Shown one piece after another: positions 33,414 through 57,513 of a stretch of 64,000 bases of DNA (its first letter is position 1; each line of letters opens with the position of its first letter). This DNA comes from an uncultured Anaerolinea sp. (GTDB taxonomy: Bacteria; Chloroflexota; Anaerolineae; Anaerolineales; UBA4823), in NCBI GenBank assembly GCA_964503145.1, contig CAZCYV010000004.1, positions 142,414 through 206,413 on the forward strand. The letters are read 5' to 3'. The position numbers and the translations under genes are program-made. Below the pieces are notes generated by a model. The model worked only from the letters and a program-made list of their open reading frames with translations, searched no databases and was not told the DNA's origin.

Positions 33414-33647
33414 ATGCGGAAGGGAAGGACGGATATGGGACACAGACTCAATCGTTTGCTCGACTTTCTTTCCGAAGCCCTGGCACAGCGCAAAGGTCTG
33501 CTCCTGGTGATTGCTATCCTGCTGGTTGCAATCAATTACCTGCTCCAATTCATCCCTGGCGCAGGCTGGCTGGTGGAAACCAATCTGTTTTTACATCTTG
33601 GGATCGTCTTGGGTTTGATAGGAGTGATGATCGCTTGGGCACTGTAA
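33414..33647 (+). CDS. Small two-TM membrane protein (hypothetical)
   Basis: 77 aa with two hydrophobic helices (LLLVIAILLVAINYLLQFI, LHLGIVLGLIGVMIAWAL). It starts directly after the hflX stop. No family recognised. Confidence 0.5.
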   Translation: MRKGRTDMGHRLNRLLDFLSEALAQRKGLLLVIAILLVAINYLLQFIPGAGWLVETNLFLHLGIVLGLIGVMIAWAL

Positions 33648-35747: not shown

Positions 35748-35906
35748 CCTGACTTTATCACCCCACATCTACCAACTTTCCCTAACTAAGTCTCGCCAAG
35801 GCAAACCGATCCTGGCTCAAAATTCGTTCATAATAGACATTGGAGCAATCCTTTGCTCCGGTCTTGATTGGACGTTTTTGTACTGGCTTTGCATCGGGAT
35901 GGCCTT

Positions 35907-38768: not shown

Positions 38769-39833
38769 ATGAGGAGAACATCTATGAAAACGCTGAAGAA
38801 AGCTTCGTTATGGGGGATGTTGTCATGGCTGATGCTGGCAATTATGCTAGTCGTCGTATTGGGTGGGTGCGCTCCAAAGACCCCAGCGACGGCCACTGAA
38901 ACGGAAGAGCCGGCGGTATCTAGCTATAGCGGGAAGAAGATCCTGTATGTAAACTCTTACCACGAGGGTTATGCATGGTCGGATGGGATCGAGAGCGGGT
39001 TGCATGAAGTACTGGACGGTACAGGGGTGGAATTAAAGATCCTTCGTATGGATACCAAACGGAACCCGGATGTTGAATTTGGGCAACAGGCGGGTATTAA
39101 GGCCAAGGCGGAGATCGATGCCTTTAAGCCCGATGTCGTAATTGTGTCCGATGACAATGCGCAGAAATATCTGGTCGTGCCGTTTTTAAAAGGGACCGAT
39201 ATACCGGTTATCTTCAACGGGGTGAATTGGGATGCTTCAGCTTATGGATACCCTGCCAGTAATGTTACCGGTATGATCGAGGTTGAACTACCTGATCAGT
39301 TGATTGAGCTGCTAAAGACGTACGCAAAGGGAGAGCGGTTGGGGTATCTGACGGTTGATTCTGAAACCGAGAGAAAAGTAGTGGATATTTACAACCAACG
39401 GTTCTTCAAAGGTCAATTGAAACCATATTGGGTGAAAACCCAGGAGGAGTTCAAAGCAGCTTTCCTGGCGGCTCAGGATGAAGTAGATATCCTGTTTATT
39501 GGCAATAACGCCGGCAGCGAAACATGGGACGAGACTGAGATGAAGCGTTTCGTTTTGGAAAACTCGAAAATTCCGAGCGGATCAATCAATGATTGGATGG
39601 CCCCTTATTGCCTGCTGACAGTGGCTAAGAGCGCCAAAGAGCAAGGGGTGTGGTCGGCTGAAATGGCGCTCAGGATTCTCGATGGAACGCCCGTGTCGGC
39701 AATTCCAGTAACCTATAATAAAAAAGGTGATCTGATATTGAACCTCGACCTGGCAGATAGACTGAACGTCGTCTTTGCGCCATCCTTGTTGAAGAATGCT
39801 GCCGTGGTCCTTGAGAATAGTGCCAGTCAATAA
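38769..39833 (+). CDS. Periplasmic substrate-binding protein (ABC_sub_bind-like), orphan
   Basis: 354 aa with an N-terminal anchor or lipobox (LVVVLGGCAP). The KKILYVNSYHEGYAWSDGIESG segment is typical of the ABC_sub_bind family. There are no cognate ABC permease or ATPase genes nearby. Confidence 0.75.
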   Translation: MRRTSMKTLKKASLWGMLSWLMLAIMLVVVLGGCAPKTPATATETEEPAVSSYSGKKILYVNSYHEGYAWSDGIESGLHEVLDGTGVELKILRMDTKRNPDVEFGQQAGIKAKAEIDAFKPDVVIVSDDNAQKYLVVPFLKGTDIPVIFNGVNWDASAYGYPASNVTGMIEVELPDQLIELLKTYAKGERLGYLTVDSETERKVVDIYNQRFFKGQLKPYWVKTQEEFKAAFLAAQDEVDILFIGNNAGSETWDETEMKRFVLENSKIPSGSINDWMAPYCLLTVAKSAKEQGVWSAEMALRILDGTPVSAIPVTYNKKGDLILNLDLADRLNVVFAPSLLKNAAVVLENSASQ

Positions 39834-39907
39834 TCTACCGGTGTTATGCAGAAGGATCACTTGGACGCTGCGACCAACCAACCGTTTTATCACAATGAGG
39901 AAAAAGC

Positions 39908-41401
39908 ATGAATCCACTTAGCCGATTGCTAGGTCCATCCATCCGCAGGAGAATCTCGTCCGCTTTCCTGATGGTCACTGTGCTGGTGTTGGTGATGGCA
40001 GCGGCAAGCTATTTACAACTGCGTCAGATTAGCCCTTCCTCAGAGGTGATCATTCATAATAGCTTGGACCTGGATCATCTCCAACACCTGGCGGCTGCAA
40101 CAGCAGCACTGGATGCTGACCTGGAAAGGTACCTTGTCATTCCAGGGGTTGAATACCAGGAAAATGTTCAAAATGATTTACTGACCATTGGGGAGTCCCT
40201 AGAAAACTTGCAAGAAAATCCAGTGCCTGAGATTCAAGGCAGCATTACAGAGCTGGAAGAGGTTGTCACCCGATTACAAGTCAGCGTCCAACAGTTGATG
40301 GAGGCCCGTTCAGCAAATGTTTCCTCGAGGCAGATAAACCGACAGATCGTTGCGTTGTATAGTGACATCGAGATGCTCAAAGGATTGCAAGATGATCTAT
40401 CTGCCAAGGTGTTGGAAAACCTTCAATCAACGGCGGTGTCGCAGGGTACATTGGCCGAGCAGGTTCTAAGCCAATCCATGGTGCTTGGGATTATTGTCGT
40501 GCTGCTCGCGGTGGTCACTGCATTTATGTCAGACAGGCGGTTGCGGGCGATCAGCGAGCTTACCCGTACTGCAACAGCCATTGCTGGCGGAGATTTGGAA
40601 CGCACAGCCTCGGTGGAAAGCAAGGATGAAATCGGGGTTTTAGCGATCGCTTTCAACACGATGACCGGTAAATTGCGCGAACAGATGGCCACGCTGGAGC
40701 AGCGCGTCGCGGAGCGCACCCGGGCGCTGCAAACCAGCACTGAAGTCAGCCGTCGCCTGTCCACGATTTTGGATCAGAATGAATTGGTGAAGGCGGTAGT
40801 GTATGAAGTGCAGCAGGCATTTGATTACTACCACGCCCAAATTTACTTGTTTGACGAGGCTGGCGAAAACCTGGTGATGGTGGGGGGCACCAGCCAGGCA
40901 GGGCAGCAGATGTTGGCCCGGGGGCACAAAATCCCCAAGGGTCGTGGCCTGGTGGGACGGGCAGCGGAAAGCGGTGAAGTGGTGCTGGTGAGCGATACCA
41001 CGGCGAACCCGGACTGGCTGCCGAACCCCTTGTTGCCAGAGACGCGCTCGGAGGTGGCTGTGCCGATCAAGATCGGCAAACAGGTGCTGGGCGTCTTGGA
41101 CGTTCAGCAGGATAGGGTTGACGGTTTGACTGAGCAGGATGTCAGCCTGTTGACCTCGGTCGCCAACCAGGTAGCGGTGGCGGTGCAGAACGCACAGCTT
41201 TACACGCAAACCCGACAGAAGGCAGAGCGCGAGGCAAAGATCAACCTGATCGGCCAGAAATTGCAACAGACCCTGACCATCGAGGATACGCTCCAGGTAG
41301 CGCTGGTGGAGCTGAGTCAGGCTTTGGATGCTTCACGAGCGGCTATTCGGGTGAGTCGCTTGCAAACAAATGGCGGGCGGGAGCATGTTAAAACCAACTA
41401 G
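39908..41401 (+). CDS. Membrane receptor: helical periplasmic sensor (CHASE3/4HB-like)-TM-HAMP-GAF, no output domain
   Basis: 497 aa with TM1 AFLMVTVLVLVMAAASYL and TM2 VLGIIVVLLAVVTAFM. HAMP (AIAGGDLERTASVESKDEIGVLAIAFNTMTGKL). GAF with DYYHAQIYLFD...NPDWLPNPLLPETRSEVAVPI...VAVAVQNAQLY. It ends in a short conserved tail. No HisKA, GGDEF or MCP signalling domain is visible. Confidence 0.85.
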   Translation: MNPLSRLLGPSIRRRISSAFLMVTVLVLVMAAASYLQLRQISPSSEVIIHNSLDLDHLQHLAAATAALDADLERYLVIPGVEYQENVQNDLLTIGESLENLQENPVPEIQGSITELEEVVTRLQVSVQQLMEARSANVSSRQINRQIVALYSDIEMLKGLQDDLSAKVLENLQSTAVSQGTLAEQVLSQSMVLGIIVVLLAVVTAFMSDRRLRAISELTRTATAIAGGDLERTASVESKDEIGVLAIAFNTMTGKLREQMATLEQRVAERTRALQTSTEVSRRLSTILDQNELVKAVVYEVQQAFDYYHAQIYLFDEAGENLVMVGGTSQAGQQMLARGHKIPKGRGLVGRAAESGEVVLVSDTTANPDWLPNPLLPETRSEVAVPIKIGKQVLGVLDVQQDRVDGLTEQDVSLLTSVANQVAVAVQNAQLYTQTRQKAEREAKINLIGQKLQQTLTIEDTLQVALVELSQALDASRAAIRVSRLQTNGGREHVKTN

Positions 41402-41442
41402 ATCAAACACGAATCAAGTTCCAGACACCGCTGGAGGTCAGA

Positions 41443-42435
41443 GTGTTACCTAGGAAACGAGTATTTCTTGCGGTTTTCCTGATATCGAGTGTGCTACTGA
41501 GCGCATGTTCCGGGTTTTCAAAGGCAGATCCGTACACTCAGAAACCATTGAAAATAGCCTGGAACGCCTGGCCAGGTGATTATCCGATCGTCCTGGCTGG
41601 GGAACTGGGCCTCTATGAGAAGTATGGGGCAGAGGTGGAGACAATTTATAGTGAGGATTATTCGCAACAGTTGGCTCAGTTGCTTTCTGGTGAGATCGAT
41701 AGTTTTAATGCTACGATTTCCGATGTCTTGTTGATGGCGAACACAGATGATTTGCAAATCGTGTTGGTATCGGATTATCCGCAGGGGGCAAACGTGATCA
41801 TTGGGGATGCGAGCATACAAACGCCAAGAGATCTCAAGGGCAAAAGATTGGGCGTAGATGCCTCCGTCATCCAGAGTCAGTTATTGGTGGCGGAGATGCT
41901 CAAGGCCTATGGTTTAAGCATTGACGATGTCAGGTTGGTTTCGATCATCCCCGAGGAAGTGCCAGAAGCCTTGGGCGAGACGATCGATGCTGGTTTTACC
42001 TGGGGGCAATTCGTTACAGAGGCGATCAAAAAAGGCAACAAAGTTGTTTATTCAGACGCCGAAGCGCCCGGATTGCTGACCGATGTACTCATCTTTCGCC
42101 GAACTACAGTTGAAGAACGACCTGAGGACATTCAGGCGGTTGTCGCTGCCTGGATCGAAGCGGCGGGCTTCTTGAACGCCAATCCAGACCAGGCTGTGGA
42201 AATGATTGCACGACACTCTGGCTTATCCCAGGATGAAGTCAGCCTGGAGGGAGTCAAAGTCTATACACTCAGAGACAATCTTTCGGCCTTCCAATTTGGC
42301 GATGATTTTAGCTCGCTGTACTTCACCATTAACGTAAACCAGAATTTTTTGCGAGATCAGGGATATATATCGAAATTTGTCCCGCTCGAAAGGCTGATCC
42401 AGACCAGCTTCTTGACCGCCCTGTCTTCGCAATAG
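41443..42435 (+). CDS. NMT1/THI5-like (nitrate/sulfonate/taurine-type) periplasmic binding lipoprotein, orphan
   Basis: 330 aa with lipobox VLLSACSG. KIAWNAWPGDYPIVLAGELGLYEKYG is typical of the NMT1/SsuA-like SBP fold. No ABC transporter genes are adjacent. Confidence 0.75.
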   Translation: MLPRKRVFLAVFLISSVLLSACSGFSKADPYTQKPLKIAWNAWPGDYPIVLAGELGLYEKYGAEVETIYSEDYSQQLAQLLSGEIDSFNATISDVLLMANTDDLQIVLVSDYPQGANVIIGDASIQTPRDLKGKRLGVDASVIQSQLLVAEMLKAYGLSIDDVRLVSIIPEEVPEALGETIDAGFTWGQFVTEAIKKGNKVVYSDAEAPGLLTDVLIFRRTTVEERPEDIQAVVAAWIEAAGFLNANPDQAVEMIARHSGLSQDEVSLEGVKVYTLRDNLSAFQFGDDFSSLYFTINVNQNFLRDQGYISKFVPLERLIQTSFLTALSSQ

Positions 42436-42515
42436 CGTTTGCATTGCCAGATAGCACAGCATCGAGAGGATATTACCCTGTGAGGTGGAGGGCTTTCTCC
42501 TGAGGAGAAAAATGA

Positions 42516-44966
42516 ATGAATAGTCAGCCAGATGAACTCCAATTGATCATCAGCGAACCAGGCGACCTGGTAGAAGCAAAGCGCCGCCAAAACGCGTTGC
42601 GCCTGAGCTTGCTAATTGCGGTTCTAATGATCTTTGTCACGATAGGGGTGATATGGGTTTCGGCCCGCAATCAGGTCGATGCGTCCGAAGCGTATATTAC
42701 TGCCTCACTGGCTTTGGTTGCGGGCGCGGCTGCCTGGCTAAACTGGCGTAAGCGCGGCAATTGGGGCATGCTGGCGTTAGCCTTTGTGATTGCGTTGATT
42801 CCGCTGATCATGCCTTTTGTGACGGAACAACGCTCGATCCAGGTCGGCATCATCACCATCATTATCATGGCCGGCCTGAGTGTGGCCACTTTACCGCCCA
42901 GGCTGGGCGGTTTGGCGATTGTCAGCGTCGCTGTTACTGCGGTGATCGGGGTGTTACTCGATTATTTCCTGCCGATGCGACATGCCACGTCTAGTGAACC
43001 GGTCACGAATATCACCCTGATTGTGGCGCTGCTCATCTTTGGATACTTTGTGTTGCGAGAGTATCGTCGGTTTAGCATGCGAGTGAAGCTGATCATGGCA
43101 TTTGTAGCGGTGGCGATGATCCCTTTGACTCTTCTGGCCATGGTCAACAATTATCAGACGACCAAGTACTTAAACGAGGTTTCCCAGGCTAAGATTTCTG
43201 AAGCTGCAGAGACGATCGCAACCAGCGTGGATAACTACCTCAGGAATGAGTTGTTTACCATCCGCGTCGAGGCGCAACTGCCGGATTTTGTGGCTTTGCT
43301 TAGCCTCCCAGGCCCGGCAAGACAAGAAAGCGACCTTTTCGAAAAGGTGGGGCGAGTCCTGGCCTACTACTCTCGGCGAGATCCAATCTTCATCAACTCT
43401 TATGCTTTGATCGACTCGACCGGCTTAGTTGTCCAGGATATTGATCCAAACAACATTGGAAAAAGCGAAATTGGGCAGGAATATTTTCTCGAAACTATGC
43501 TCTCAGGCTATCCCACGGTTTCGAACATATATTTCGACGAGGCGGCTGGCCTGTTCATCGCTGCGCCGGTCAGAACCAATAGGGGTGAAATCATCGGCCT
43601 CCTAAGGGTGCGCTACGATGCCCGCGTCCTGCAGGCCATCCTGTTGCGCGAAAGGAAAACCGATGCGCTGGCGCTGAACAGCGCATTGCTGGACGATGCT
43701 TACTATATTCGCCTGGCAGATAGCCACTCGCCGGAGAGCAACTACAAGAGCTTTGCTCCGCTCAACGAAGCTCAGGTGAAAATGTTGCAAAACTCTCGCC
43801 GCCTGCCGGGCGGGGAAAGCACCGAATTTGCAGGGAACGAGCCGGAAGTCGTCGAAGGGATATTGGCTTCGAAGAACACCCCGATCTTTACGGCGCCAGC
43901 AGAAGTTTTCGATGGGGAGCCGGCGATGGTCGCCGTCAGGCATCTGGATGAGGCCCCATGGATCGTGATGGTTCGCCAGGCTGTTCGCGAAGTCCAGGTT
44001 CCTGTCGAGACGCAGACACGGCTGGCTGTGGTTCTGTCACTTGCCGCGTTGGCATTGATTGCCGGGGTAGCGTTCCTGGTCTCGCAAGCCTTGTCGGCGC
44101 CATTGATGCATTTGAAACAGGTAGCCGAACAAGTCGCCGCCGGCGATCTGCGCGCCCAGGCGAAAATCAGCACTCCGGACGAGGTCGGACTACTTGCCAG
44201 TACCTTCAATACGATGACTCAGGAGTTGCGCAGCACTCTGGATGGACTGGAGCAGCGCGTGGCCGACCGAACGCGAGCAATCAAACTGAGCGCCGAGGTT
44301 GGCCGCCGCCTGTCAACGATCCTGAACCCTTCTCAGTTGGTGACCGAAGTGGTGCAGTTGCTGCAGCAAGCGTTCAACTATTATCATGTGCACATCTATC
44401 TGTTTGATGAGCAGAAAGCGAACCTGGTCATGATGGGCGGCACGGGCGAGGCGGGCAGGATCATGCTCGAACGCCGTCATCAAATTCCATTGGGCAAGGG
44501 CTTGGTTGGTCGAGCAGCCGAGACGGGGACGGCTGTGCTGGCGGCGGATACCTCCCAAGAGCCGGACTGGTTGCCAAATCCATTGCTGCCGGACACCAGG
44601 GCCGAGATTGCTGTGCCCATCCTGTTGGGTGATGAGGTACTGGGCGTGCTGGATGTGCAGCAGAATTCGGTTTACGGCCTGGGGCGGGATGACATGGAAT
44701 TGTTGTATGGTATTGCTGCGCAGGTGGCGATTGCCCTGCGCAACGCCGAGCAATACACCCAGGCGCAGCGCCGGGCGCAGCGGGAGGCGCTGACCAGCCA
44801 GATCGTCCAGCAAATTCAGTCGACGCGTTCGGTAGAGCGCGCGTTGCAGATCACGGTGCGCGAGTTAGGGCGGGCGTTGGGAATGGAGCGCACGCGCGTG
44901 AGGATCGCCATGGGCCAGGACAACCATGCTGAGAACAGCGGCAATGGCAAAAGCACCCATGAATGA
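42516..44966 (+). CDS. Membrane receptor: ~6 TM N-terminal domain-dCache-like-TM-HAMP-GAF, no output domain
   Basis: 816 aa. Six N-terminal hydrophobic helices, an extracytoplasmic Cache-like region of about 280 aa, and a TM (LAVVLSLAALALIAGVAFLV). HAMP (VAAGDLRAQAKISTPDEVGLLASTFNTMTQEL). GAF with NYYHVHIYLFD...EPDWLPNPLLPDTRAEIAVPI...VAIALRNAEQY, plus the conserved tail. Confidence 0.85.
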   Translation: MNSQPDELQLIISEPGDLVEAKRRQNALRLSLLIAVLMIFVTIGVIWVSARNQVDASEAYITASLALVAGAAAWLNWRKRGNWGMLALAFVIALIPLIMPFVTEQRSIQVGIITIIIMAGLSVATLPPRLGGLAIVSVAVTAVIGVLLDYFLPMRHATSSEPVTNITLIVALLIFGYFVLREYRRFSMRVKLIMAFVAVAMIPLTLLAMVNNYQTTKYLNEVSQAKISEAAETIATSVDNYLRNELFTIRVEAQLPDFVALLSLPGPARQESDLFEKVGRVLAYYSRRDPIFINSYALIDSTGLVVQDIDPNNIGKSEIGQEYFLETMLSGYPTVSNIYFDEAAGLFIAAPVRTNRGEIIGLLRVRYDARVLQAILLRERKTDALALNSALLDDAYYIRLADSHSPESNYKSFAPLNEAQVKMLQNSRRLPGGESTEFAGNEPEVVEGILASKNTPIFTAPAEVFDGEPAMVAVRHLDEAPWIVMVRQAVREVQVPVETQTRLAVVLSLAALALIAGVAFLVSQALSAPLMHLKQVAEQVAAGDLRAQAKISTPDEVGLLASTFNTMTQELRSTLDGLEQRVADRTRAIKLSAEVGRRLSTILNPSQLVTEVVQLLQQAFNYYHVHIYLFDEQKANLVMMGGTGEAGRIMLERRHQIPLGKGLVGRAAETGTAVLAADTSQEPDWLPNPLLPDTRAEIAVPILLGDEVLGVLDVQQNSVYGLGRDDMELLYGIAAQVAIALRNAEQYTQAQRRAQREALTSQIVQQIQSTRSVERALQITVRELGRALGMERTRVRIAMGQDNHAENSGNGKSTHE

Positions 44967-48583: not shown

Positions 48584-48603
48584 TTTTGGAGGGAAGCAGT
48601 ACG

Positions 48604-49413: not shown

Positions 49414-50255
49414 AGAATCGCCTTGACGAATTGTTTTCGACGCTGCCCGATGCAGACTCTGGTGAGCTGCCCCCGGTTGAACCTAAAGGGCCGGCAGGCA
49501 AGGCAGTCTCAGCACCGCCAGCGCCCGCTGCTTCTCCTGTTGCGGTATCGCTGACAGGGGAGAATGCGCAGGAATGGGATCAGACGCAGTCAGGCCAGAT
49601 GGCTGGAATGCCCCCGCGCGCAGAGTTGCTGGCGGCAATCATCGATGCCACGCCAGATTGGATCTTTGTCAAGGATCGCGATCATCGCTTCGTCATCGTC
49701 AACCAGAGCTTTGCCTCTGCGCTTGGGCGCGAGAAGGATGATTTCATTGGGAAGAATGACCTTGAGATGGGCTTCCCAAAGGAAGCCGTTATGGGTGATC
49801 CGACGAGGGGCATCCAGGGATATTGGTGGGATGATGAGAAGGTTTTGAAAACCGGAGAAACGCAGACCATTCTGGGGGAGAAAAATTTCATCAACGGCCA
49901 GTTGCGCTATTTCGATGTTTTCAAGACAGCCTTGCGCAACGCCCAGGGCGATGTAGTTGGGTTGCTCGGCTATGCCAGAGATGTGACCGAGCGAGCAAAG
50001 TTGCTGGCAGAGATCCAGTCCACGGCCGAGCGCGAACAGCGATTGAGAGAAATTACCGCCCGAGTACGATCGTCGAGCGATGCAGATACGATTCTGCGCA
50101 CCGCAGTGCGTGAGTTGGGCAATGCGTTGGGAAGGAAGACTTTTATCCGATTGACGGACAGCATAGAGACCGAAACCCCATGGGTATCTAAACCTGAGCG
50201 ATCCCAAGCAGGGGACAATGGGAACCACGGTCGAGTGGTCGGAGGTGAGCAATGA
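49392..50255 (+). CDS. PAS domain protein with conserved GAF-start-like C-terminal tail
   Basis: 287 aa. An A/P-rich N-terminus, then a PAS fold (LLAAIIDATPDWIFVKDRDHRFVIVNQSFASALG...GLLGYARDVTERA), a coiled coil and the tail DADTILRTAVRELGNALGRKTFIRL. It overlaps the parA-like gene by 22 nt and the next gene by 4 nt. Confidence 0.8.
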   Translation: MSRSDDLKNRLDELFSTLPDADSGELPPVEPKGPAGKAVSAPPAPAASPVAVSLTGENAQEWDQTQSGQMAGMPPRAELLAAIIDATPDWIFVKDRDHRFVIVNQSFASALGREKDDFIGKNDLEMGFPKEAVMGDPTRGIQGYWWDDEKVLKTGETQTILGEKNFINGQLRYFDVFKTALRNAQGDVVGLLGYARDVTERAKLLAEIQSTAEREQRLREITARVRSSSDADTILRTAVRELGNALGRKTFIRLTDSIETETPWVSKPERSQAGDNGNHGRVVGGEQ

Positions 50256-53200
50256 CCGATGAGCGCATCATGCTAAATCCATTACGCCAGCGTCTGGAGG
50301 AGATAGCTCAAGCGCTGAACCAGAGCCTGCGCTCGATTCCCGATTTCGTTTGTCTGCCGGTCTCGGTCACCCATGCCTTTGCGCGCCAGGATGTCAATCT
50401 GGTGGCGACGGTGTTGGAGACCGGCGATAGTCAGCGCTTCTTGCATGATTTCATGGCCCGGGCGCAGGATCGCTTACAACGAGGCCTGTCGAAGGAAGCA
50501 TTGCTGCAGGGGTTAGATTGTCTGGAGCAGACGGTGACGCCTCGGGTGGTAGATCTCGATGCAGCGCGATTGGTCTGGCAATCATTATCACAGGCGCGTT
50601 TTGCGCTGGGAAAACAAAATGGATCGAATGGCAGGTCGGCGGCAACCGAGCAAGCGGACGACCTGGCAACCCCCAAGCAGGCAGCCACCCTGGTTAAGAG
50701 CAACCCGTCGGTCGGTAGAAAGGGTGGGACTGGTCCGCTTGGGCGAGCAGACTACAACACACAGTTGGAGCTTCTCAAACTGGTGCTGGGGCATATTCCA
50801 CAGGCAGTTTTCTGGAAAGACCGCGATCTGGTTTATTTGGGTTGCAATCTGGAATTCGCCAAAGACGCCGGTCTGACTTCTGTGGATGAAATCGTGGGAA
50901 AGACCGATTTCGACATGCCATGGCGTGAACAGGCGGAACTGTATCGCTCGGACGACCGGGCGGTGCTCGAAAGCGGCGTGGCAAAGTTGGATTACGAAGA
51001 GCCTCAGACGACGCCGGAGGGGAATATCATCTGGTTGCGCACCAGCAAGATCCCCATGCGCGATCCACAGGGGAACATCTTCGCTGTGTTGGGGATGTAT
51101 GAGGACATCACTCCCAGGAAACAGGCGGAAGAAGCCATCTTGCGGGAAAAGGCTCATGCAGAGGCATTGCTGGCCGAGCAAAAGCGGCTAGAAGCCCAGT
51201 TGCAGCAGACCCTGGAAAGGCGCGGTTTTCAAGTACAGGTGAGCACGCAGATCGCTCAAGAGATCGCTATGGCCCCGGATCTGCGAACGCTATTTCAAAG
51301 CGTGGTCACTCTGGTAAAGGAGCGGTTCGATTACTACCACGTCCAATTGTTGCGCTATGAACCTGCGCTAAATGCGGTCATCCTGGTTGCGGGCTATGGT
51401 GATGTGGGGCAGAGCATGCTGCAGGCAGGCCACCAGTTGCCGTTAGGGACGGGCCTGATCGGCACGGCCGCTGCGCTTGGGGAGACACAACTCCGCCCAT
51501 CGGTTGCGGCGGATCCGGATTGGCGGTCGAACCCGCTGCTGCCTGATACGAAAGGCGAAATCGCAGTGCCGATCAAGCTACGTGACCAGGTGTTGGGCGT
51601 GCTGGATGTGCAGAGCGACCGAGAGGGCGTGCTCGGCGAAGACGATCGCTTGCTGCTGGAAGGTCTATGTGGGCAGATTGCCGTAGCGATCGAAAGCACC
51701 CGTTTGCGCCGGGAGATGGAAGAACGCCTGCATGAATTGGATTTGCTTTACCGTTCATCGCACCGTGAAGGCTGGAACGAGTTTATACAACGGATTCAGG
51801 GTTGCAATGCCTATCTCTACGAGAACCTGGAAGTGCGCCCGATCGGCGATGGTGATCGCCAAGGTGGAGATGCTGATCCCGCAGATTGGGCTGAGCCTAA
51901 GGCGGATATCCTTGTGCCGCTCTCCATTCGCGGCCAGATTATTGGCGAGTTGGGCGTGTTTGACGACCCGATCCATCCGCTTAGCGAAGGGGAGCGTAAG
52001 CTGGTCGAGCAAGTATCCGATCAGGTTGCGCAGGCGCTAGAAAGCGCCCGTTTGTATGAACAGACTCAGGCCAGCCTGGCGGAAACACAGATGATGTACA
52101 CCGGCTCTGCTCGCATCATCGCCTCCGGAACTCTGGACGAAATCCTAAAGGCTTTGGTAGAAACGACGCGGTTGAATGAACTCGACCAGGTGATTATCGA
52201 GTTATTTGATCGCCCCTGGGAAACAGAGCCCCCAGAAACGATGGTCAATGCGGCGGTGTGGGAGCGAGAAGGTGTGCCTTCCAAAGAGTCGGTTGGCAGT
52301 GTGTATCACATGCGTGAACTGCCCTTCTTGAGCATGATGGATCGCAGTCTGCCTCTAGTCGTAAAGGACATGCTGACAGACGAACGCGTTGACCCGGCCA
52401 CACGCGAGGTTGCTGTGGATCAACTGGGCATTCGTGGTCAGGTCTTCTGGCCGATGGTGGCAGGCGGGCAATGGTTTGGCGCATTGTCAGGTCAGTCAGG
52501 CAAGCCGCTCACTCTGGAGCAGCAGGATATCCGCCGCATTGGCAGCCTGGTGGCTCAGGCCGCAACGGCTATCCAAAGTTTGAAGCTTCAGCAGGAGATG
52601 CGCTCTCGACTGCAAGAGTTGACTGCTCTGCAGCGCCTGATGAGTCGTGAAGCCTGGTCTGCTTATCAGGCCCAGTTAACCGATGAGGCCAGAGGATATG
52701 TCTTCAATCAGGTTGAACTGCTGCCGGTGAGAACGGCCTCCATGCAGGAGCAGGAGAGCAGAGCAGGCTTGCTAATGGATGATAATAACAGCGGCTACGT
52801 TGCGCCACTGGAGGTGCGCGGTGAGCCTATTGGCGCATTGGGAGTAAAGTTGGACGTCAGCAGGTCGTTGACCGAAGAAGAAGAGGCCTTCTTGCAAGCG
52901 GTTTCTGAGCAGGTGGCTCAGGCGCTTGAGCGCGCCAGGCTGATGGAGCAAACCCAAAAGAGCGCAGTGGAGCTTCAGGCAGTGGCTGAAGTTGGTACGG
53001 CGACGGCTACCATCCTTGACCCGGAGCAACTTTTGCAACAGGTGGTTGACCTGACGAAAGAGCGGTTTGGGCTGTATCATGCGCATATTTACCTGGTGGA
53101 CGAGGCTGGTGAGAATCTAGTCTTGACCGTTGGCGCAGGTGAAGTCGGACGCAGCATGACCGCTCAGGGCTGGTCTATACCAATCACCCTGGAGGATTCG

Positions 53201-54235
53201 CTGGTCGCTCGAGCAGCGCGAACTCGCCAGGGGCAGGTGGCAAACGATGTGCGTCGCGAGAGCGGTTATCTGCCCAATCCGCTGCTGCTGGATACGTTGT
53301 CTGAAATGGCGGTGCCAATGATCATTGGTGATCGCCTGCTGGGTGTATTCGACGTGCAGTCGGATAAGCTGAATCACTTCCATGAGGAAGATGTGCGCAT
53401 CTATAGCACGCTGGCTGCTCAGATCGCTGTGGCGCTACAAAATGCCAAACTTTACGCTGAACAACTGGCGACAGTAGAGCGCTTGCGCGAATTGGATAAC
53501 ATGAAATCCGCCTTTCTGGCAAACATGAGCCATGAATTGCGCACGCCGCTGAACTCGATCCTCGGTTTTACTCAGGTGATCATGGAGGGACTGGATGGCC
53601 CGCTGACTGAAGTGATGCTGGCGGACCTGGAATTGATCGAAAAGAACGGTAAACACCTGCTAAACCTGATCAATGAAGTCCTTGACATGGCGAAGATCGA
53701 CTCAGGGCGGCTGAGTTTGAACCCTGAACCCGTGGATCTGTATGAGCTCATGGAGGATGTAATTGGCACAAGCGCGCCGCTGGCCAGGGAAAAAGATCTC
53801 TTCGTGAAACTTGAGGCGGCGCCAGCCGAAGACTGGAGAGTGATGGCAGACCAGGTTCGGATGCGACAGATATTCCTGAATCTGATCGGGAACGCCATCA
53901 AATTCACGGAGGCAGGCGGCGTTACAATCACTATGAACAAGGTGCGACAATCCGCTGAGGCGGGCAGCGATTTGGTGCAGTTGCGCATCCAGGATACGGG
54001 CATTGGTATCCCGAGAAATAAACTGGATGAGATTTTCGAGGCCTTTACGCAAGTGGATAGCTCGACCACTCGAAAGGTGGGCGGCACCGGCTTGGGCCTA
54101 CCAATCAGCCGTCGCCTGGTTGAGATGCATGGTGGTCGCTTGTGGGCGGAGAGCGAAGGCATCGGAAAGGGCGCGACGTTTGTGCTAGAGTTGCCGGTGG
54201 GCGAGAGCAGCGCCAATTCTACCGAGGCGTACTAG
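50252..54235 (+). CDS. Large sensor histidine kinase: helical N-domain-PAS-(GAF-like x5)-HisKA-HATPase_c
   Basis: 1327 aa. PAS (LGHIPQAVFWKDRDLVYLGCNLEFAKDAG...GMYEDITPRKQAE). Five GAF-terminal helices (IAVAIESTRL, VAQALESARL, ATAIQSLKL, VAQALERARL, IAVALQNAKL). H-box MSHELRTPLNSI (His codon 53531..53533), N-box IGNAIKFT, G-boxes DTGIGI and GTGLGLPI. Confidence 0.92.
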   Translation: MTDERIMLNPLRQRLEEIAQALNQSLRSIPDFVCLPVSVTHAFARQDVNLVATVLETGDSQRFLHDFMARAQDRLQRGLSKEALLQGLDCLEQTVTPRVVDLDAARLVWQSLSQARFALGKQNGSNGRSAATEQADDLATPKQAATLVKSNPSVGRKGGTGPLGRADYNTQLELLKLVLGHIPQAVFWKDRDLVYLGCNLEFAKDAGLTSVDEIVGKTDFDMPWREQAELYRSDDRAVLESGVAKLDYEEPQTTPEGNIIWLRTSKIPMRDPQGNIFAVLGMYEDITPRKQAEEAILREKAHAEALLAEQKRLEAQLQQTLERRGFQVQVSTQIAQEIAMAPDLRTLFQSVVTLVKERFDYYHVQLLRYEPALNAVILVAGYGDVGQSMLQAGHQLPLGTGLIGTAAALGETQLRPSVAADPDWRSNPLLPDTKGEIAVPIKLRDQVLGVLDVQSDREGVLGEDDRLLLEGLCGQIAVAIESTRLRREMEERLHELDLLYRSSHREGWNEFIQRIQGCNAYLYENLEVRPIGDGDRQGGDADPADWAEPKADILVPLSIRGQIIGELGVFDDPIHPLSEGERKLVEQVSDQVAQALESARLYEQTQASLAETQMMYTGSARIIASGTLDEILKALVETTRLNELDQVIIELFDRPWETEPPETMVNAAVWEREGVPSKESVGSVYHMRELPFLSMMDRSLPLVVKDMLTDERVDPATREVAVDQLGIRGQVFWPMVAGGQWFGALSGQSGKPLTLEQQDIRRIGSLVAQAATAIQSLKLQQEMRSRLQELTALQRLMSREAWSAYQAQLTDEARGYVFNQVELLPVRTASMQEQESRAGLLMDDNNSGYVAPLEVRGEPIGALGVKLDVSRSLTEEEEAFLQAVSEQVAQALERARLMEQTQKSAVELQAVAEVGTATATILDPEQLLQQVVDLTKERFGLYHAHIYLVDEAGENLVLTVGAGEVGRSMTAQGWSIPITLEDSLVARAARTRQGQVANDVRRESGYLPNPLLLDTLSEMAVPMIIGDRLLGVFDVQSDKLNHFHEEDVRIYSTLAAQIAVALQNAKLYAEQLATVERLRELDNMKSAFLANMSHELRTPLNSILGFTQVIMEGLDGPLTEVMLADLELIEKNGKHLLNLINEVLDMAKIDSGRLSLNPEPVDLYELMEDVIGTSAPLAREKDLFVKLEAAPAEDWRVMADQVRMRQIFLNLIGNAIKFTEAGGVTITMNKVRQSAEAGSDLVQLRIQDTGIGIPRNKLDEIFEAFTQVDSSTTRKVGGTGLGLPISRRLVEMHGGRLWAESEGIGKGATFVLELPVGESSANSTEAY

Positions 54236-54270
54236 GGCATAAAAGTTTCAGACAACAACATGACGATCTT

Positions 54271-55938
54271 TTGGAGGTTGCAATAGCAAAGCCTGTTTTT
54301 CTCCAGTGTGTCGAATGCGGTCACGAGCAAGCCTATCGGGCTGGCGAGCCGACGATCTGTGAATTTTGCCAGTCCTCCTGGGTGGAGGCGCATTATGATT
54401 ACCACGCTTTCAAGCGAGAGCTTTTGCGCGGATTACCCGGCCGGGCGTTCAACATCTGGCGTTACCATGATGTACTACCGATCGAGAACCCGCGCAGCCT
54501 GGATCTGGAAACTGTCGGCGGCACTCCACTATACCCGCTGCGACGCTTTGCACATGAGCTGGGCTACCGACATGTCTATGTCAAGGACGAGCGGTTCGGG
54601 CCGACCAGTTCATTCAAAGACCGCCAGGCGGCGGTTTCGGTAGCAGCGATGGTCGAGAATGGGCTCAAGGAAGCTGTCATCGCGTCGACGGGGAATGCAG
54701 CAGTGGCATATGCGGCTGCTTGCGCTCGCGCTGGAATCAAGCTTTGGGTGTTCATGACCAGTATGGTGCCGCAGGAGAAGCTGCGTGAGGTGGCGCTCTA
54801 TGGGGCAGAAGTCGTCAAAGTAAGTGGGACGTATGATCAGACGAAAGCCATTGCGGCAGAATTTGCCAAGCGGCGCGGCCTGGCGCTTGACCGTGGCGCC
54901 AGCAGCCTGCCTTCGCGCGAGTCTATGAAAACCATTGCCTATGAGATTGTCGAGCAATTAGGCTGGCGTGCCCCAGATTGGTACATTCAGGCGGTCAGCG
55001 GCGGCCTGGGACCGCTCGGAGTTTACCATGGCTTTCAGGAGCTCTATGCAATGGGTTTGATCGATCGAGTGCCATCTCTGGGGGTTATCCAGGCCGAGGG
55101 GTGCGCACCGATGGTTCAGGCGTTTCGAGACGGTCAAAGCACCGCAAAAGCTGTCACGCCGCAGACGCGAATCGCAATCCTCTCCACTGGAGATCCAGGA
55201 AAGACCTATACTTACCTTTGGAAGCTGGTCCAGCGGTATGGTGGTACAATGGAAGCCGTTTCGGATGGCGAGGCGTTCAGGATCATGCGCTCTCTGGCAA
55301 AGAGCGAAGGTCTGGCGGTCGAGCCGGCTACTGCGGTAGCTTTTGCCGGACTTTCCAAGATGATCCAAAACGATGTGTTCAAGCCTGAAGAGCTTGTAGT
55401 GGTCAATTGCACCGGGCATACTTTCCCGGTGGAGAAACACGTTTTGGGTGATCAATGGAGCGTGGATCTCAAGTTGGATGATCAGACATCACCGGTTGTC
55501 CAGGAAGGACTACAAGCCGCGCTGGAACGACTCGATGAAAAGACTACCACGGTCCTGATCATGGATGACAACCCGAATGACGCCCTGCTGGTCAGACGTT
55601 TTCTAGAGGCGCGCAAGAATTACCGTGTGTTCCAGGCTGCGGATGGAGAGGACGGATTGAGGCAGGCTCAGGAGCGCTTACCTGACCTGATCATCATGGA
55701 TTTGATGATGCCTAACCTGGATGGTTTTGGCGTGCTTCAAGCGCTCAAGGGCGACGAGCGGACAAAAGGGATACCGATCATTGTCGTGAGCGCTAAAGAT
55801 TTGACTGATTTGGATCGGGCTCGGTTGAGAGGAAATATCGAGGCGATTTATCAAAAAGGCTCGTTGCCGCCGCGGGTCTTTGTAGATCAGGTGGTGGAGG
55901 TCATCGAGCATAAACGGGAGGGCCTGGATGGCATATAA
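54271..55938 (+). CDS. Threonine synthase-like PLP-dependent enzyme fused to a C-terminal receiver (REC) domain
   Basis: Zinc ribbon CVECGH...CEFCQ. PLP lysine motif GPTSSFKDRQ (Lys codon 54616..54618) and the ASTGNAAVAYAA loop. From about aa 425 there is a full REC: VLIMDDNPND, DLIIMDLMMPNLDG, IIVVSAK. The ORF track begins at 54142 inside the kinase gene. TTG 54271 is the first plausible start after the kinase stop, and no in-frame ATG lies upstream of the zinc ribbon. The start is uncertain. Confidence 0.85.
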   Translation: MEVAIAKPVFLQCVECGHEQAYRAGEPTICEFCQSSWVEAHYDYHAFKRELLRGLPGRAFNIWRYHDVLPIENPRSLDLETVGGTPLYPLRRFAHELGYRHVYVKDERFGPTSSFKDRQAAVSVAAMVENGLKEAVIASTGNAAVAYAAACARAGIKLWVFMTSMVPQEKLREVALYGAEVVKVSGTYDQTKAIAAEFAKRRGLALDRGASSLPSRESMKTIAYEIVEQLGWRAPDWYIQAVSGGLGPLGVYHGFQELYAMGLIDRVPSLGVIQAEGCAPMVQAFRDGQSTAKAVTPQTRIAILSTGDPGKTYTYLWKLVQRYGGTMEAVSDGEAFRIMRSLAKSEGLAVEPATAVAFAGLSKMIQNDVFKPEELVVVNCTGHTFPVEKHVLGDQWSVDLKLDDQTSPVVQEGLQAALERLDEKTTTVLIMDDNPNDALLVRRFLEARKNYRVFQAADGEDGLRQAQERLPDLIIMDLMMPNLDGFGVLQALKGDERTKGIPIIVVSAKDLTDLDRARLRGNIEAIYQKGSLPPRVFVDQVVEVIEHKREGLDGI

Positions 55939-56305
55939 AATCCTTTATATCGAAGATAACCCAGACAATATGACATTGGTCAAGCGCGCCCTGGAGGCTC
56001 GAGGATATGAGTTTTTGTGGGCGCAAAATGGCCTTTCGGGCGTTTCCGAGGCGATCGAAAAGCAGCCCGATGTCATTCTGCTCGACATCAATTTGCCCGA
56101 CATTGACGGTTACGAAGTGGCGCGTCGGTTGCGATCGAGCGGAAAAAGTTCGTTGGTCTATGTGCCGATCATCGCAGTGACTGCAAATGCCCTGAGGGGC
56201 GACGCAGAGAAAGCCCTGGCAGCGGGGTGCGATGTGTATATGTCCAAACCGATCAATATTCGTGAGCTTTGGGCGCGCGTTGAAGGTTTTTTGTCTGGCA
56301 GTTAG
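55928..56305 (+). CDS. Stand-alone CheY-like response regulator (REC only)
   Basis: 125 aa with ILYIEDNPDN, phospho-acceptor in VILLDINLPDIDG, IIAVTA and the KP of YMSKPI. It overlaps the preceding gene by 11 nt. Confidence 0.92.
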   Translation: MAYKILYIEDNPDNMTLVKRALEARGYEFLWAQNGLSGVSEAIEKQPDVILLDINLPDIDGYEVARRLRSSGKSSLVYVPIIAVTANALRGDAEKALAAGCDVYMSKPINIRELWARVEGFLSGS

Positions 56306-56352
56306 CGGGCTTCGAGTTGTATACCCCCTAGCGCGCTGCGGAAAACGTCCAG

Positions 56353-57513
56353 ATGTCCTATTTAATCGATTTACAGTGCTCAGAGTGCGGTAAATCTTAT
56401 GACCCGCACACCATCCAGACATTTTGCCTGGATTGTCAGGCGCCTTTGCTGGCAGTCTATGACCTGGAGAAGGCACGCGCGGCTTTAGATCGGGATGCCA
56501 TCCGGCGGCGCCCGCGGGGGATGTGGCGCTGGCAAGAGTTGCTTCCGGTGTTCCAGGCCGAGAATCGGATCAGCCTGGGTGAGGGGGATACGCCGCTGTT
56601 GCATTTGCCGCGAGTAGGCGAGAAATTGGGCCTGTCCCAACTGTATGTGAAGGATGAGAGCCTGAATCCAACAGGATCGTTCAAGGCGCGCGGTTTAGCG
56701 GCAGCAGTATCGAAGGCCAAGGAATTGGGGATACGTAAAGTGATCATCCCGACGGCGGGAAATGCCGGCGGTGCGATGGCAGCCTATGCAGCGCGTTCGG
56801 GGATCGAGGCGTGCATCTACATGCCCAAAGATACGCCGTTTGCGAACATGGAGGAGAGCCGCATTGCAGGCGCGCAGGTCATCCTGATCGATGGGTTGAT
56901 CAGCGAAGCGGCAGGGATGGCGGGCGTCCGCGCGCGCGATGAGGGATGGTTTGACGTATCGACTTTCAAAGAGCCTTACCGCTGTGAGGGGAAGAAGATC
57001 ATGGGCTATGAACTGGCGGAGGAGTTCAACTGGCATTTGCCCGAAGTGATCGTTTATCCGACTGGCGGCGGTACGGGGTTGGTGGGGATGTGGAAAGCAT
57101 TTCATGAGCTCAAGGCCTTGGGCTGGCTGGAAGACTCGGCCATGCCGCGCATGGTCGCGGTGCAGGCAGCCGGTTGTGCACCCGTGATCAAAGCCTTTGA
57201 ATCTGGCGCGGAGTTTTGCGATTACTGGGTTGGGGCGCAAACGGTGGCTTCTGGATTGCGGGTGCCTAAGAGCTTTGCCGATCAGATCATTTTGCGCGAT
57301 CTGCGCGCCAGCCATGGTAATGCAGTAGCTGTGAGCGACGATGAATTGTTACAGGCGCAGAGTATGTTAGCAGCGATGGAAGGCATATTTGCTGCTCCGG
57401 AAGGCGCAGCAACGTTGGCGGCTGTGATTCGTTTGGCACAACAAGGCTGGGTCCATCCTGATGAACGGATCGTTTTGTTTAACACGGGTACTGGTTTGAA
57501 GTATTTGAAATAA
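56353..57513 (+). CDS. thrC: Threonine synthase-like PLP-dependent enzyme (unfused paralogue)
   Basis: 386 aa. Zinc ribbon CSECGK...CLDCQ, PLP lysine motif NPTGSFKARG (Lys codon 56683..56685), and the PTAGNAGGA loop. Assignment to genuine threonine synthase rather than another fold-type II enzyme is tentative. Confidence 0.8.
   Translation: MSYLIDLQCSECGKSYDPHTIQTFCLDCQAPLLAVYDLEKARAALDRDAIRRRPRGMWRWQELLPVFQAENRISLGEGDTPLLHLPRVGEKLGLSQLYVKDESLNPTGSFKARGLAAAVSKAKELGIRKVIIPTAGNAGGAMAAYAARSGIEACIYMPKDTPFANMEESRIAGAQVILIDGLISEAAGMAGVRARDEGWFDVSTFKEPYRCEGKKIMGYELAEEFNWHLPEVIVYPTGGGTGLVGMWKAFHELKALGWLEDSAMPRMVAVQAAGCAPVIKAFESGAEFCDYWVGAQTVASGLRVPKSFADQIILRDLRASHGNAVAVSDDELLQAQSMLAAMEGIFAAPEGAATLAAVIRLAQQGWVHPDERIVLFNTGTGLKYLK

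Follow-up and report, generated by a model that had tools for sequence, protein, structure and literature searches.

How can several receptors that lack a kinase domain be served by a single histidine kinase, and what does that kinase act upon? The question is raised by a run of genes at positions 38769 to 57513 of the window, the whole 64,000-nucleotide stretch of Anaerolineales (Chloroflexota) DNA analysed here. The initial annotation proposed that output-less sensors encoded in this run may converge on one kinase by hetero-oligomerisation and that the read-out may be enzymatic. On balance, we lean towards a reading in which positions 33635-57513 of the window encode a conserved multi-receptor two-component system of 14 genes. 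In this system, sensors coupled through a C-terminal tail would act on one kinase, and the kinase on a CheY-like protein and on a fusion of a threonine synthase-like enzyme with a receiver domain (ThrC-like/REC); a further tier would be encoded at the 5′ end.

Gene content and borders of the cluster

The open reading frames (ORFs) from 38769 to 57513 form an unbroken series on the plus strand. The overlaps initially described were all found (4 nt at 44963/44966, 22 nt at 49392/49413, 4 nt at 50252/50255 and 11 nt at 55928/55938), and another one, of 4 nt, occurs at 48580/48583 provided that the TTG start is used. The intergenic gaps measure 74, 41, 80, about 35 and 47 nt. A scan of these short gaps revealed neither promoter-like nor terminator-like sites, but it is a weak test and uninformative for Chloroflexota. 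Domain analysis bears out the domain content previously assigned to the segment (binding proteins, HAMP-GAF receptors, a multi-TM five-GAF protein, ParA, a PAS-only protein, a kinase, PALP-REC, CheY and PALP) along with 2 PAS domains and 12 GAF-like modules, namely 8 full GAFs and 4 shortened GAF-like units that we call "mod". The gene count, on the other hand, needs correction: fourteen genes had been claimed where we count 11, the gaps being too small for others. The total of 14 is reached solely by including three plus-strand signalling genes at 33635-38696.

Judging from gene order in related loci, the left border at 38769 is indeed too tight and the conserved system begins with this trio. 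Its first member encodes a GAF-HisKA-HATPase_c kinase (33635..34936; Pfam), present in orthologous position in L029, L039 and L086-L088. Thirteen nt past the stop codon, an ATG at 34950 (MGGKVLIIDD) opens the gene for an OmpR-type response regulator (REC plus Trans_reg_C by Pfam; 34950..35747), with orthologues of 51-54% identity in the same position in L029, L039, L048 and L068 as well as in L086-L088. The third member is a hybrid kinase with the Pfam architecture REC-REC-GAF-GAF-PAS-HisKA-HATPase_c (35868..38696). A REC-(REC)-GAF(-HK) gene adjoins the sensor array upstream wherever the border is visible. The trio is a conserved part of the system. It probably provides a transcriptional branch, with the OmpR-type regulator as candidate output, and the receivers of the hybrid kinase could link the two tiers. 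Two earlier statements, that there is a single kinase core (53492-54223) and that DNA-binding output is absent, hold inside 38769-57513 but not for the whole system, to which the trio adds two kinase cores and a DNA-binding regulator.

Conservation of gene order

The ensemble is a conserved unit, not a chance neighbourhood. The order sensors - kinase - ThrC-like/REC - CheY is found again in approximately 85 Anaerolineales loci. A HisKA kinase gene lies directly 5′ of the ThrC-like/REC fusion in 70 out of 70 related Anaerolineales loci (1-2 nt away in L001, L003 and L004), CheY follows the fusion in 63 of 69, and a canonical threonine synthase gene is found downstream in 41 of 69. When the ThrC-like protein was used for searching, the best 120 database clusters were all PALP+REC fusions (69-100% identity), and the best 80 GTDB species loci belonged to Anaerolineales/Chloroflexota, except for one 1.6-kb contig binned as Pseudomonadota. 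Three look-ups starting from tail proteins (L086-L088) all reached the same cluster. One of these loci, L087, is broken into many short ORFs. Flanks fetched per locus were limited to 10 kb, which makes the numbers of sensors per locus lower bounds.

The ParA/MinD-type ATPase (48580..49413; AAA_31, PF13614, 160 bits), whose deviant Walker A motif lies in SQKGGVGKTT, is an occasional extra, accessory rather than core, since it is found in equivalent position only in L007, L008, L018, L027, L048 and L086, about 10% of loci.

Four kinase-less sensors share a C-terminal tail

The sensor array opens with a lipoprotein-type solute-binding protein (PF04392; 38769..39833) carrying a signal/anchor segment and an LGGC lipobox. 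It probably serves as periplasmic partner to the protein encoded after it, a membrane sensor with the architecture TM-4HB-like-TM-HAMP-GAF-tail (39908..41401, tail at 41186-41356; Pfam). ORF calls in other loci place the PF04392 domain in one protein with a GAF-PAS-tail sensor (L019, L021-L023) or with a GAF-tail sensor (L032). A second lipoprotein-type binding protein, assigned to the NMT1/SsuA family by a profile match (41443..42435), precedes a sensor with about six TM segments followed by dCache-TM-HAMP-GAF-tail (42516..44966, tail at 44739-44909; Pfam), and proteins of this family precede dCache-HAMP-GAF-tail sensors in many loci. The third membrane sensor (44963..48583) has about nine TM segments, then GAF-mod-mod-GAF-GAF-tail (mod units at 46625-46966 and 46952-47278, tail at 48329-48496). 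The fourth sensor is soluble (49392..50255); it consists of a kinase-type N-terminal motif (DDLKNRLDELF), a PAS domain and a tail (49989-50156), and aligns to internal parts of the long kinases of L006 and L007, the closest relatives, namely to their N-terminal motif and a PAS-to-GAF junction.

Profile-HMM searches revealed no hidden kinase or cyclase domain in the four sensors, nor an MCP or other Pfam output domain, and relaxing the threshold to E ≤ 1 for the unassigned parts did not change this. The description of these proteins as output-less nevertheless overlooks a conserved helical tail of about 45 residues at the C-terminus of each, which is the obvious candidate for a transmitter or docking element. 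Among the fetched loci, 165 kinase-less ORFs carry the tail; all lie upstream of the fusion on the same strand, with none elsewhere in the flanks, and a median of 11 residues separates the tail from the end of the protein. Of 120 proteins homologous to the HAMP-GAF part, 117 have it in full, and tails are better conserved than the sensor domains preceding them. Tail classes are tied to gene position across dozens of species: the ...ALGAPxxIAQLSxKDKK class occurs in 35 of 67 kinase-adjacent sensors versus 0 of 90 others.

Giant multi-GAF kinases also match the tail profile, at the junctions between their GAF domains, and single-stretch matches among its best 150 hits are all C-terminal. By this homology, the tail derives from a GAF-GAF junction, truncated behind the first strand. 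It is not a complete GAF domain, for it comprises no more than the inter-GAF helix, the first helix and the region of the first strand. AlphaFold predicts two helices, the first of 45 residues (pLDDT 84-95); in the model of the HAMP-GAF-tail portion of the 42516..44966 sensor (pLDDT 90.6), the last GAF helix is lengthened and followed by a second short helix, then by coil.

Do the sensors act on the adjacent kinase?

The gene following the array encodes a histidine kinase (50252..54235) in which Pfam and the mod units define a 170-aa N-domain followed by PAS-GAF-mod-GAF-mod-GAF-HisKA-HATPase_c (mod units at 51701-52066 and 52583-52954). The matches to PF00512 (67 bits) and PF02518 (105 bits) and the H-box SHELRTPLN identify it as a two-component kinase; it is soluble, with no TM segment. 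Most species have a kinase with a conserved N-terminal motif and a coiled coil. In at least eight species (L016, L024, L027, L039, L048, L062, L068, L082), dCache/TM-HAMP-GAF-mod-mod-GAF modules are fused to the kinase core. These fusions, the common tail and the location of the 165 sensors upstream of the kinase lend indirect support to a convergence of several kinase-less sensors on one kinase. Signal perception would fall to one soluble PAS protein and to three receptors in the membrane, of which two have a lipoprotein binding protein as partner; through their tails, all four would be coupled to the one soluble HisKA kinase whose gene comes next.

The tail sensors might instead act on another partner (ThrC-like/REC, CheY, the hybrid kinase or ParA) or bind ligands or form scaffolds independently, being co-transcribed with the kinase merely because they serve the same physiological response. 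Contact between sensors and kinase is a prediction from sequence and gene order; moreover, the number of tails (1-4) varies independently of kinase architecture, the number of tail sensors does not strictly track that of kinase modules, and the kinase possesses PAS and GAF input domains of its own. Against this stand the fusion of the same sensor modules to a kinase core, the confinement of every tail-bearing ORF to the array upstream of the kinase, and the fact that the kinase-adjacent sensor has its own, near-invariant tail class. We consider such an arrangement distinctly unlikely. A more radical possibility is that giant multi-GAF kinases were broken within a GAF domain, leaving the tails as inert remnants of gene fission on decaying, non-functional fragments, so that the cluster would amount to an ordinary kinase/regulator pair surrounded by debris. 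The homology of the tail to a truncated GAF-GAF junction, and the fragmented state of L087, are what one would expect from such a process. Debris, however, would hardly outdo its own sensor domains in conservation or fall into position-specific classes over dozens of species; the sensors retain intact TM, dCache, HAMP and GAF domains, their genes are joined by tight, often overlapping junctions, and the single-stretch matches mentioned above are without exception C-terminal. We regard this scenario as very improbable.

Candidate outputs

The ThrC-like/REC ORF as listed, starting from GTG 54142, overlaps the kinase gene by 94 nt. Its real start probably lies near TTG 54271, where the homologue alignment places it (54271..55938). 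Pfam recognizes a Zn ribbon, a PALP domain and a C-terminal receiver. The enzyme part is a fold-type II PLP domain (PF00291, 238 bits) with the Schiff-base lysine and PLP motifs, and a PDB search matched it best to threonine synthases (2ZSJ, E 1e-42; 1UIM, E 2e-40). It retains SFKDR, ASTGN, R160, E162, K165, EPA[ST] and TGH (Thermus thermophilus numbering), and 83 sequences show no variation in the PLP and catalytic-type motifs. All of 56 homologues share the SFKDR lysine and, in the receiver, D432/D433, D477, S507 and K529. Its score with NF006050 (242.7) is below the equivalog cut-off of 303, and that with TIGR00260 (167.1) exactly at the threshold of 167.1. The positions of N154-S155 in T. 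thermophilus ThrC, which we take to bind the substrate phosphate, are occupied by an invariant R-G; because of this replacement, the substrate may be other than O-phosphohomoserine.

The next gene encodes a CheY-like single-domain response regulator (55928..56305; 125 aa, REC-only by Pfam) with a complete phospho-acceptor set (E9-D10, D in LLDINLPD, T in AVTAN, K in SKP) and a median identity of 75% to its orthologues. The last gene (56353..57513) specifies a canonical threonine synthase, well above the curated NF006050 cut-off (567.5 versus 303). This stand-alone ThrC is a variable cluster member; being devoid of a receiver and missing from about 40% of loci, it is no candidate for phospho-regulation. 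Hence, the suggestion that the system is read out by PLP enzymes instead of transcription survives only in the form of ThrC-like/REC, the sole candidate phospho-regulated enzyme; it does not extend to the stand-alone ThrC, and the OmpR-type regulator conserved upstream speaks against excluding transcription. In the scheme we favour, the kinase would phosphorylate the CheY-like protein and the receiver of the fusion, both encoded after it, and phosphorylation of the fused receiver would directly switch an activity of threonine-synthase type.

Conversely, ThrC-like/REC could be an input or a sink: by binding a metabolite of an amino-acid pathway, the PLP domain would modulate (de)phosphorylation of its own receiver, which would draw phosphoryl groups away from CheY in competition and inform the pathway of the metabolic state, leaving CheY and the OmpR-type regulator as the real outputs. 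Receivers that serve as phosphate sinks are well established in chemotaxis-like pathways. In the fusion the enzyme precedes the receiver, the opposite of most response regulators, and no confident contact between PALP and REC domains is seen in the AlphaFold model (linker 383-413, pLDDT < 50). Also, CheY nearly always accompanies the fusion and the OmpR-type regulator is part of the system. Yet invariance of the catalytic-type motifs goes beyond the needs of ligand binding, and the frequent adjacency of a canonical ThrC suggests a link to the reaction itself. We consider the sink model unlikely, while granting it some credence.

Relation to known signalling systems

The cluster resembles chemotaxis systems in that one soluble kinase is encoded together with several receptors (4HB, dCache, multi-TM and HAMP inputs), with a single-domain CheY and with a further receiver that, like that of CheB, is joined to an enzyme. 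The occasional ParA-like ATPase is another common trait, as some che operons include one (PpfA/ParC), and the conserved extreme C-terminal peptide of one receptor class recalls the pentapeptide tether of MCPs. Unlike chemotaxis operons, the cluster contains no CheR or CheB; none of the 14 genes has a CheW or Hpt domain according to Pfam, and the kinase is of HisKA type with no CheA P5. MCPsignal (PF00015) gives no hit in the sensors at E ≤ 0.01, nor at E ≤ 1 on unassigned parts: instead of the long MCP hairpin, the receptors end in a short GAF-derived helical tail. The stressosome (RsbR paralogues, RsbS, RsbT) likewise combines sensor paralogues having variable N-terminal inputs and a common C-terminal module with a single adjacent kinase. 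Here, however, there is no serine kinase and no PP2C partner-switching component, and the common module measures about 45 residues and is GAF-derived, with no Pfam hit to STAS in the sensors. Separate proteins, including periplasmic binding proteins, also converge on one kinase in RetS/LadS-GacS, LuxP-LuxQ and TorT-TorS. RetS and LadS are themselves kinase-family members, whereas the accessory receptors in this cluster lack DHp and CA domains and have a dedicated common tail.

On the output side, an intact receiver fused to an enzyme and encoded beside a kinase is reminiscent of CheB and of the PleD/WspR, RpfG and PP2C types, the difference being that the enzyme belongs to the fold-type II PLP threonine synthase family and is N-terminal to the receiver. 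"Winged" fold-I PLP amino-acid decarboxylases also join a CheY-like fold to a PLP-dependent amino-acid enzyme, the REC-like domain being N-terminal (PMC8503589). They differ from ThrC-like/REC in PLP fold and domain order, and the receiver in the latter has all phospho-acceptor residues and a cognate kinase gene alongside. The wing of the decarboxylases acts in oligomerisation and is not known to be phosphorylated. Finally, plant threonine synthase (1E5X/2C2B, matched in the PDB search) has an appended regulatory domain that sets the flux at the O-phosphohomoserine branch point; that domain is an N-terminal, SAM-responsive extension under allosteric control by a metabolite, where kinase phosphotransfer would operate in ThrC-like/REC.

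We found no literature describing the threonine-synthase-family PLP enzyme-receiver architecture, nor the ensemble as a whole, which the initial annotation had not recognized either; this cluster, with several kinase-less receptors beside one soluble histidine kinase, is so far undescribed. If the proposed scheme is true, an enzyme activity of threonine-synthase type would be controlled by phosphotransfer from a sensor kinase.

Gene content and borders of the cluster

Genes of the window were assigned with Pfam, NCBIfam and profiles of our own. Between 38769 and 57513 the plus strand carries an unbroken series of eleven ORFs, leaving no space for further genes, rather than the fourteen counted in the initial annotation. 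In order, these encode a PF04392 solute-binding lipoprotein; a TM-4HB-like-TM-HAMP-GAF protein (39908-41401); a solute-binding lipoprotein of the NMT1/SsuA type; a protein in which dCache-TM-HAMP-GAF follows about 6 TM segments (42516-44966); a second multi-TM protein, with about 9 segments, that carries five GAF-like units (44963-48583); a ParA-type ATPase; a PAS-only protein (49392-50255); a soluble kinase combining PAS and five GAF-like units with HisKA and HATPase_c (50252-54235); a PALP-REC fusion (54271-55938); CheY; and a canonical threonine synthase (ThrC, 56353-57513; 567.5 with NF006050, whose cut-off is 303). The junction overlaps of 4, 22, 4 and 11 nt reported earlier are exact; a further 4-nt overlap, at 48580/48583, is conditional on a TTG start. 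The tally of 12 GAF-like modules and 2 PAS domains was likewise upheld.

Directly upstream, on the same strand, lie genes for a GAF-HisKA-HATPase kinase (33635-34936), an OmpR-type regulator (34950-35747) and a REC-REC-GAF-GAF-PAS-HisKA-HATPase hybrid kinase (35868-38696). A REC-(REC)-GAF(-HK) gene adjoins the sensor array at every related locus whose upstream border is visible, and orthologues of the OmpR regulator (51-54% identity) occur in loci L029, L039, L048 and L068. In the three loci with complete borders the order is housekeeping genes, GAF-HK, OmpR regulator, REC-GAF(-HK), binding protein, sensor(s), (ParA), kinase, fusion, CheY, (ThrC). Because the upstream trio is kept with the cluster in relatives, the system in the window extends from 33635 to 57513 and comprises 14 genes, with three kinase cores and one DNA-binding regulator. 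The single kinase core originally recognised at 53.5-54.2 kb is thus the only one within 38769-57513 but not in the system as a whole, and the supposed lack of a DNA-binding output reflects borders drawn downstream of the OmpR-type regulator.

Further upstream (30753-33413) are an orphan HisKA-HATPase_c kinase (415 aa, without a recognised sensor domain) and an HflX GTPase gene. Both probably lie outside the system, since L086 and L087, two loci reached from tail-bearing sensors (see below), have RecX and RNase Y as upstream neighbours instead. At the other end, a PF04199 “putative cyclase” (kynurenine-formamidase-like) gene and a serine hydroxymethyltransferase gene on the minus strand (57612-60017) converge on the cluster; their proximity to it is not kept in other loci. 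The segment 59886-63143 holds a GntR/UTRA regulator gene, then two adjoining aspartate/ornithine carbamoyltransferase paralogues (317 and 326 aa). On the minus strand over cheY lies a 191-aa antisense ORF (55901-56476) without a domain match. A naive gene call by longest ORF picked it over cheY; it is almost certainly spurious. Of the window's 32 2-kb bins, 31 have a positive GC skew, independently of gene orientation, and the cumulative value climbs steadily, consistent with the plus strand being the leading strand throughout.

A consensus scan for promoters and terminators, which does not cover Chloroflexota promoters, found none in the short gaps of the window and gave totals close to the shuffled background. 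Rfam and tRNA scans produced no matches.

Conservation in Anaerolineales

Related loci, mostly fetched via the fusion, were annotated with domain profiles derived from the window itself. One of these loci, L041, is assigned to Brevefilum fermentans. In the fusion family, PF00291 and PF00072 occur together in all of the 120 top-ranking database clusters, at 69-100% identity. Among the best 80 species-representative genomes carrying the fusion, all belong to Anaerolineales/Chloroflexota with a single exception, a 1.6-kb contig binned as Pseudomonadota. A HisKA kinase gene stands immediately upstream of the fusion, on the same strand, in all 70 loci with sufficient upstream sequence; one to three CheY genes follow directly downstream in 63 of 69, and a canonical ThrC gene comes after CheY in 41 of 69. 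Key junctions in the source-database gene calls are gaps of 1-2 nt or overlaps of 4 nt. The synteny in related genomes that the initial annotation proposed as a check is therefore present in the kinase-fusion-CheY order. ParA is found in six annotated loci besides the window, and also in L086; in the fetched loci no gene is universal downstream of CheY/ThrC. Database names of the proteins are generic (“GAF domain-containing protein”, “threonine synthase”, “nitrate/nitrite-specific ... histidine kinase”).

Downstream of the CheY genes, and in the same orientation, eight loci (for instance L003:12965-13858) encode a GNAT-type acetyltransferase of about 290 aa. Seven of these are annotated without an adjacent canonical ThrC; in the eighth, L061, the contig stops just past the gene. 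In L087 (5521-21383) the hybrid kinase and several sensors are split into many short ORFs (e.g., REC of 160 and 65 aa, GAF of 222 aa, HisKA of 156 aa). The cause may be frameshifts in the assembly or decay of this copy of the system.

A shared C-terminal tail on the kinase-less sensors

The four kinase-less proteins (39908-41401, 42516-44966, 44963-48583 and 49392-50255) had been described as output-less. A conserved module of about 45 residues forms the C-terminal end of all four and of each kinase-less protein in the related loci. Its consensus is ...AEREAxxNxIxQKIQSxTxVExALQxAxRELGxALGxxxxxxxL, with a median of 11 residues between its end and the stop. All 165 tail-bearing ORFs lie on the plus strand upstream of the fusion, with none elsewhere in the fetched flanks. 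Of 120 proteins homologous to the second sensor over its HAMP-GAF part, 117 have the tail. The sensors do appear free of hidden output domains: permissive Pfam scans of their unassigned N-terminal regions gave nothing significant, the sole hint being MASE3 at E 0.18.

Searched against 1.84 billion representative proteins, the tail profile matched 9573. Among the best 150, each single-stretch match checked stops 5-55 residues short of the C-terminus. Proteins matched in several stretches are giant multi-GAF proteins such as P0241 (MASE3-GAFx11-HATPase_c), with a match at each GAF-GAF junction. The tail thus comprises the final helix of one GAF, the linker between GAFs and the truncated beginning (first helix/strand) of the following GAF. 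An AlphaFold model of HAMP-GAF-tail (pLDDT 90.6) extends the last GAF helix to 45 residues, beyond which come a turn, a helix of 15 residues and coil; Foldseek with this model returned ordinary GAF domains only. A degenerate DHp domain was rejected as the origin of the tail, given that in multi-GAF proteins the profile matches as many as 11 GAF-GAF junctions.

Indications of a link between the tails and the kinase

Kinases of the related loci vary in length. The minimal form, about 620 aa and found in about 20 species, has a conserved N-terminal K-R-[IV]-x-x-L-F-[SA]-D-[IL]-E motif and a coiled coil, then three copies of a unit of about 115 residues, here termed mod, which make up the entire input region ahead of HisKA-HATPase_c. 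With its coiled-coil helix, GW..Y...IGYvYD and PL.VRGE.IG.L motifs and final helix, mod represents a shortened form of GAF: it lacks the ligand-pocket part but cross-matches GAF over its C-terminal half, and Pfam detects it only faintly. Two mod units occur in the third sensor (46625-47278) and two in the window kinase (51701-52066 and 52583-52954), all on the plus strand.

Several observations connect tails with the kinase. Context look-ups that started from three tail proteins, not from the fusion, reached the same cluster in all three cases. The kinase-adjacent sensor ends in ...ALGAPxxIAQLSxKDKK-COOH in 35 of 67 loci, as against 0 of 90 sensors at other positions; the second and third sensors have tail classes of their own. 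In L016, L024, L027, L039, L048, L062, L068 and L082, the sensor modules recur as a TM/dCache-HAMP-GAF-mod-mod-GAF array joined to a HisKA core that takes the place of the tail. Conversely, the PAS-tail protein of the window carries a DDLKNRLDELF motif, an N-terminal motif that elsewhere starts the kinase in nearly all loci. Its PAS-tail part aligns to the PAS-to-GAF junction within the 2076-aa kinase of L007, to which the window kinase aligns over residues 946-2072 only, so that the PAS-tail protein looks like an example of fission from a longer kinase. Look-ups, tail classes, fusions and fission can be read as Rosetta-stone arguments for a tail-kinase link.

Two specific forms of this link were set aside. 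Pairing of tails with kinase modules at 3:3 fits 17 of 19 minimal-kinase loci, with tail counts per locus bounded by 10-kb flanks, and fails in L066, L080, L086 and L088. Split-GAF complementation, in which the tail completes mod in trans, was dropped as the lead idea because mod apparently has its own first hairpin (IGYVYD..V.PL) and would be self-contained, and because the monomer model predicts the tail as helices, not as a strand.

The ThrC-like/REC fusion

The PALP part of the fusion and the canonical ThrC next to it share 30-31% identity; the solved structures closest to the PALP part are the threonine synthases 2ZSJ (E 1e-42) and 1UIM (E 2e-40). Across 83 sequences it keeps SFKDR (with the Schiff-base lysine), ASTGN, R160, E162, K165, EPA[ST] and TGH (T. 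thermophilus numbering), several motifs being nearer to the solved enzyme than their equivalents in the adjacent ThrC. The same sequences have an invariant R-G at positions 154-155, which we take to be contacts to the substrate phosphate, and LSTGDP in place of IRIGNP; the PALP part falls under one curated equivalog cut-off and exactly on another. Every phospho-acceptor residue of the receiver is kept. Conservation of the fusion as such (71%) is unexceptional, the adjacent ThrC (69%) and CheY (75%) being conserved to a similar degree.

AlphaFold predicts folded Zn ribbon, PALP and REC domains (mean pLDDT 78), with no confident PALP/REC interdomain geometry. Between the two, linker residues 383-413 (55417-55510) have pLDDT below 50, yet much of their sequence, including a CTGHTFPVEKHV motif, is invariant, which hints at a partner-dependent or dimer-dependent element. 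Most homologues begin with M-[AS]-K-P. The equivalent codon in the window is ATA (Ile) at 54283, 6 nt downstream of GGAGG, and the nearest in-frame standard start is TTG 54271; the start is therefore uncertain by four codons, TTG 54271 being most likely rather than the kinase-overlapping GTG.

Discussion

By domain criteria the cluster is a bona fide two-component system. Similar logic is found in chemotaxis arrays and in the stressosome, whose defining domains are, however, absent here. The only PLP enzymes known with receiver-like domains are the fold-I “winged” decarboxylases (PMC8503589). A full-text literature search gave no account of a ThrC-receiver fusion, of the tail or of this cluster, in agreement with the initial impression that the ensemble is not a described system.

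We propose a two-tier, multi-receptor two-component system. Receptors, some helped by solute-binding proteins, would be coupled by their tails to a single soluble kinase, which would phosphorylate CheY and the receiver of the ThrC-like enzyme; phosphorylation of the latter would switch the threonine-synthase-type reaction, and the upstream tier of kinase, OmpR regulator and hybrid kinase would contribute transcription. The case is entirely one of comparative inference, and we lean only slightly towards this chain being correct from end to end. A bolder version, considerably more tentative, is that Anaerolineales evolved a receptor-array-like complex independently of chemotaxis proteins, in which class-specific, GAF-derived tails dock several membrane and soluble receptors on defined sites of the one soluble HisKA kinase, and the kinase switches a PLP enzyme of the ThrC family on or off through its fused receiver, in parallel to CheY and a transcriptional branch; an amino-acid biosynthetic reaction would thereby be under direct two-component control.

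The main rival concerns the output: the fusion could be a metabolic sensor or a phosphate sink, with CheY and the OmpR regulator as the true outputs. We consider this reading rather unlikely. Somewhat less probable still is that the sensors target a different partner instead of the kinase; the array-kinase fusions and the position-specific tail of the kinase-adjacent sensor point to the kinase. That the tails are inert scars of gene fission seems very improbable and is contradicted by their class-specific conservation. Returning to the two-tier scheme, all its parts are soluble or modular, so its predictions are open to direct testing in vitro.

Anaerolineales are abundant in sludge, sediments and groundwater, and to our knowledge their signalling has hardly been studied experimentally. 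The system is carried by at least about 80 species-level genomes of this order and should be of real interest to signalling specialists. If the proposal is true, it would represent a new wiring of many receptors to one histidine kinase, in which a short conserved tail replaces MCP/CheW/CheA or kinase-kinase heterodimers, and a new response-regulator output in the form of a threonine-synthase-family PLP enzyme. A core biosynthetic step would then be subject to post-translational, sensor-driven regulation.
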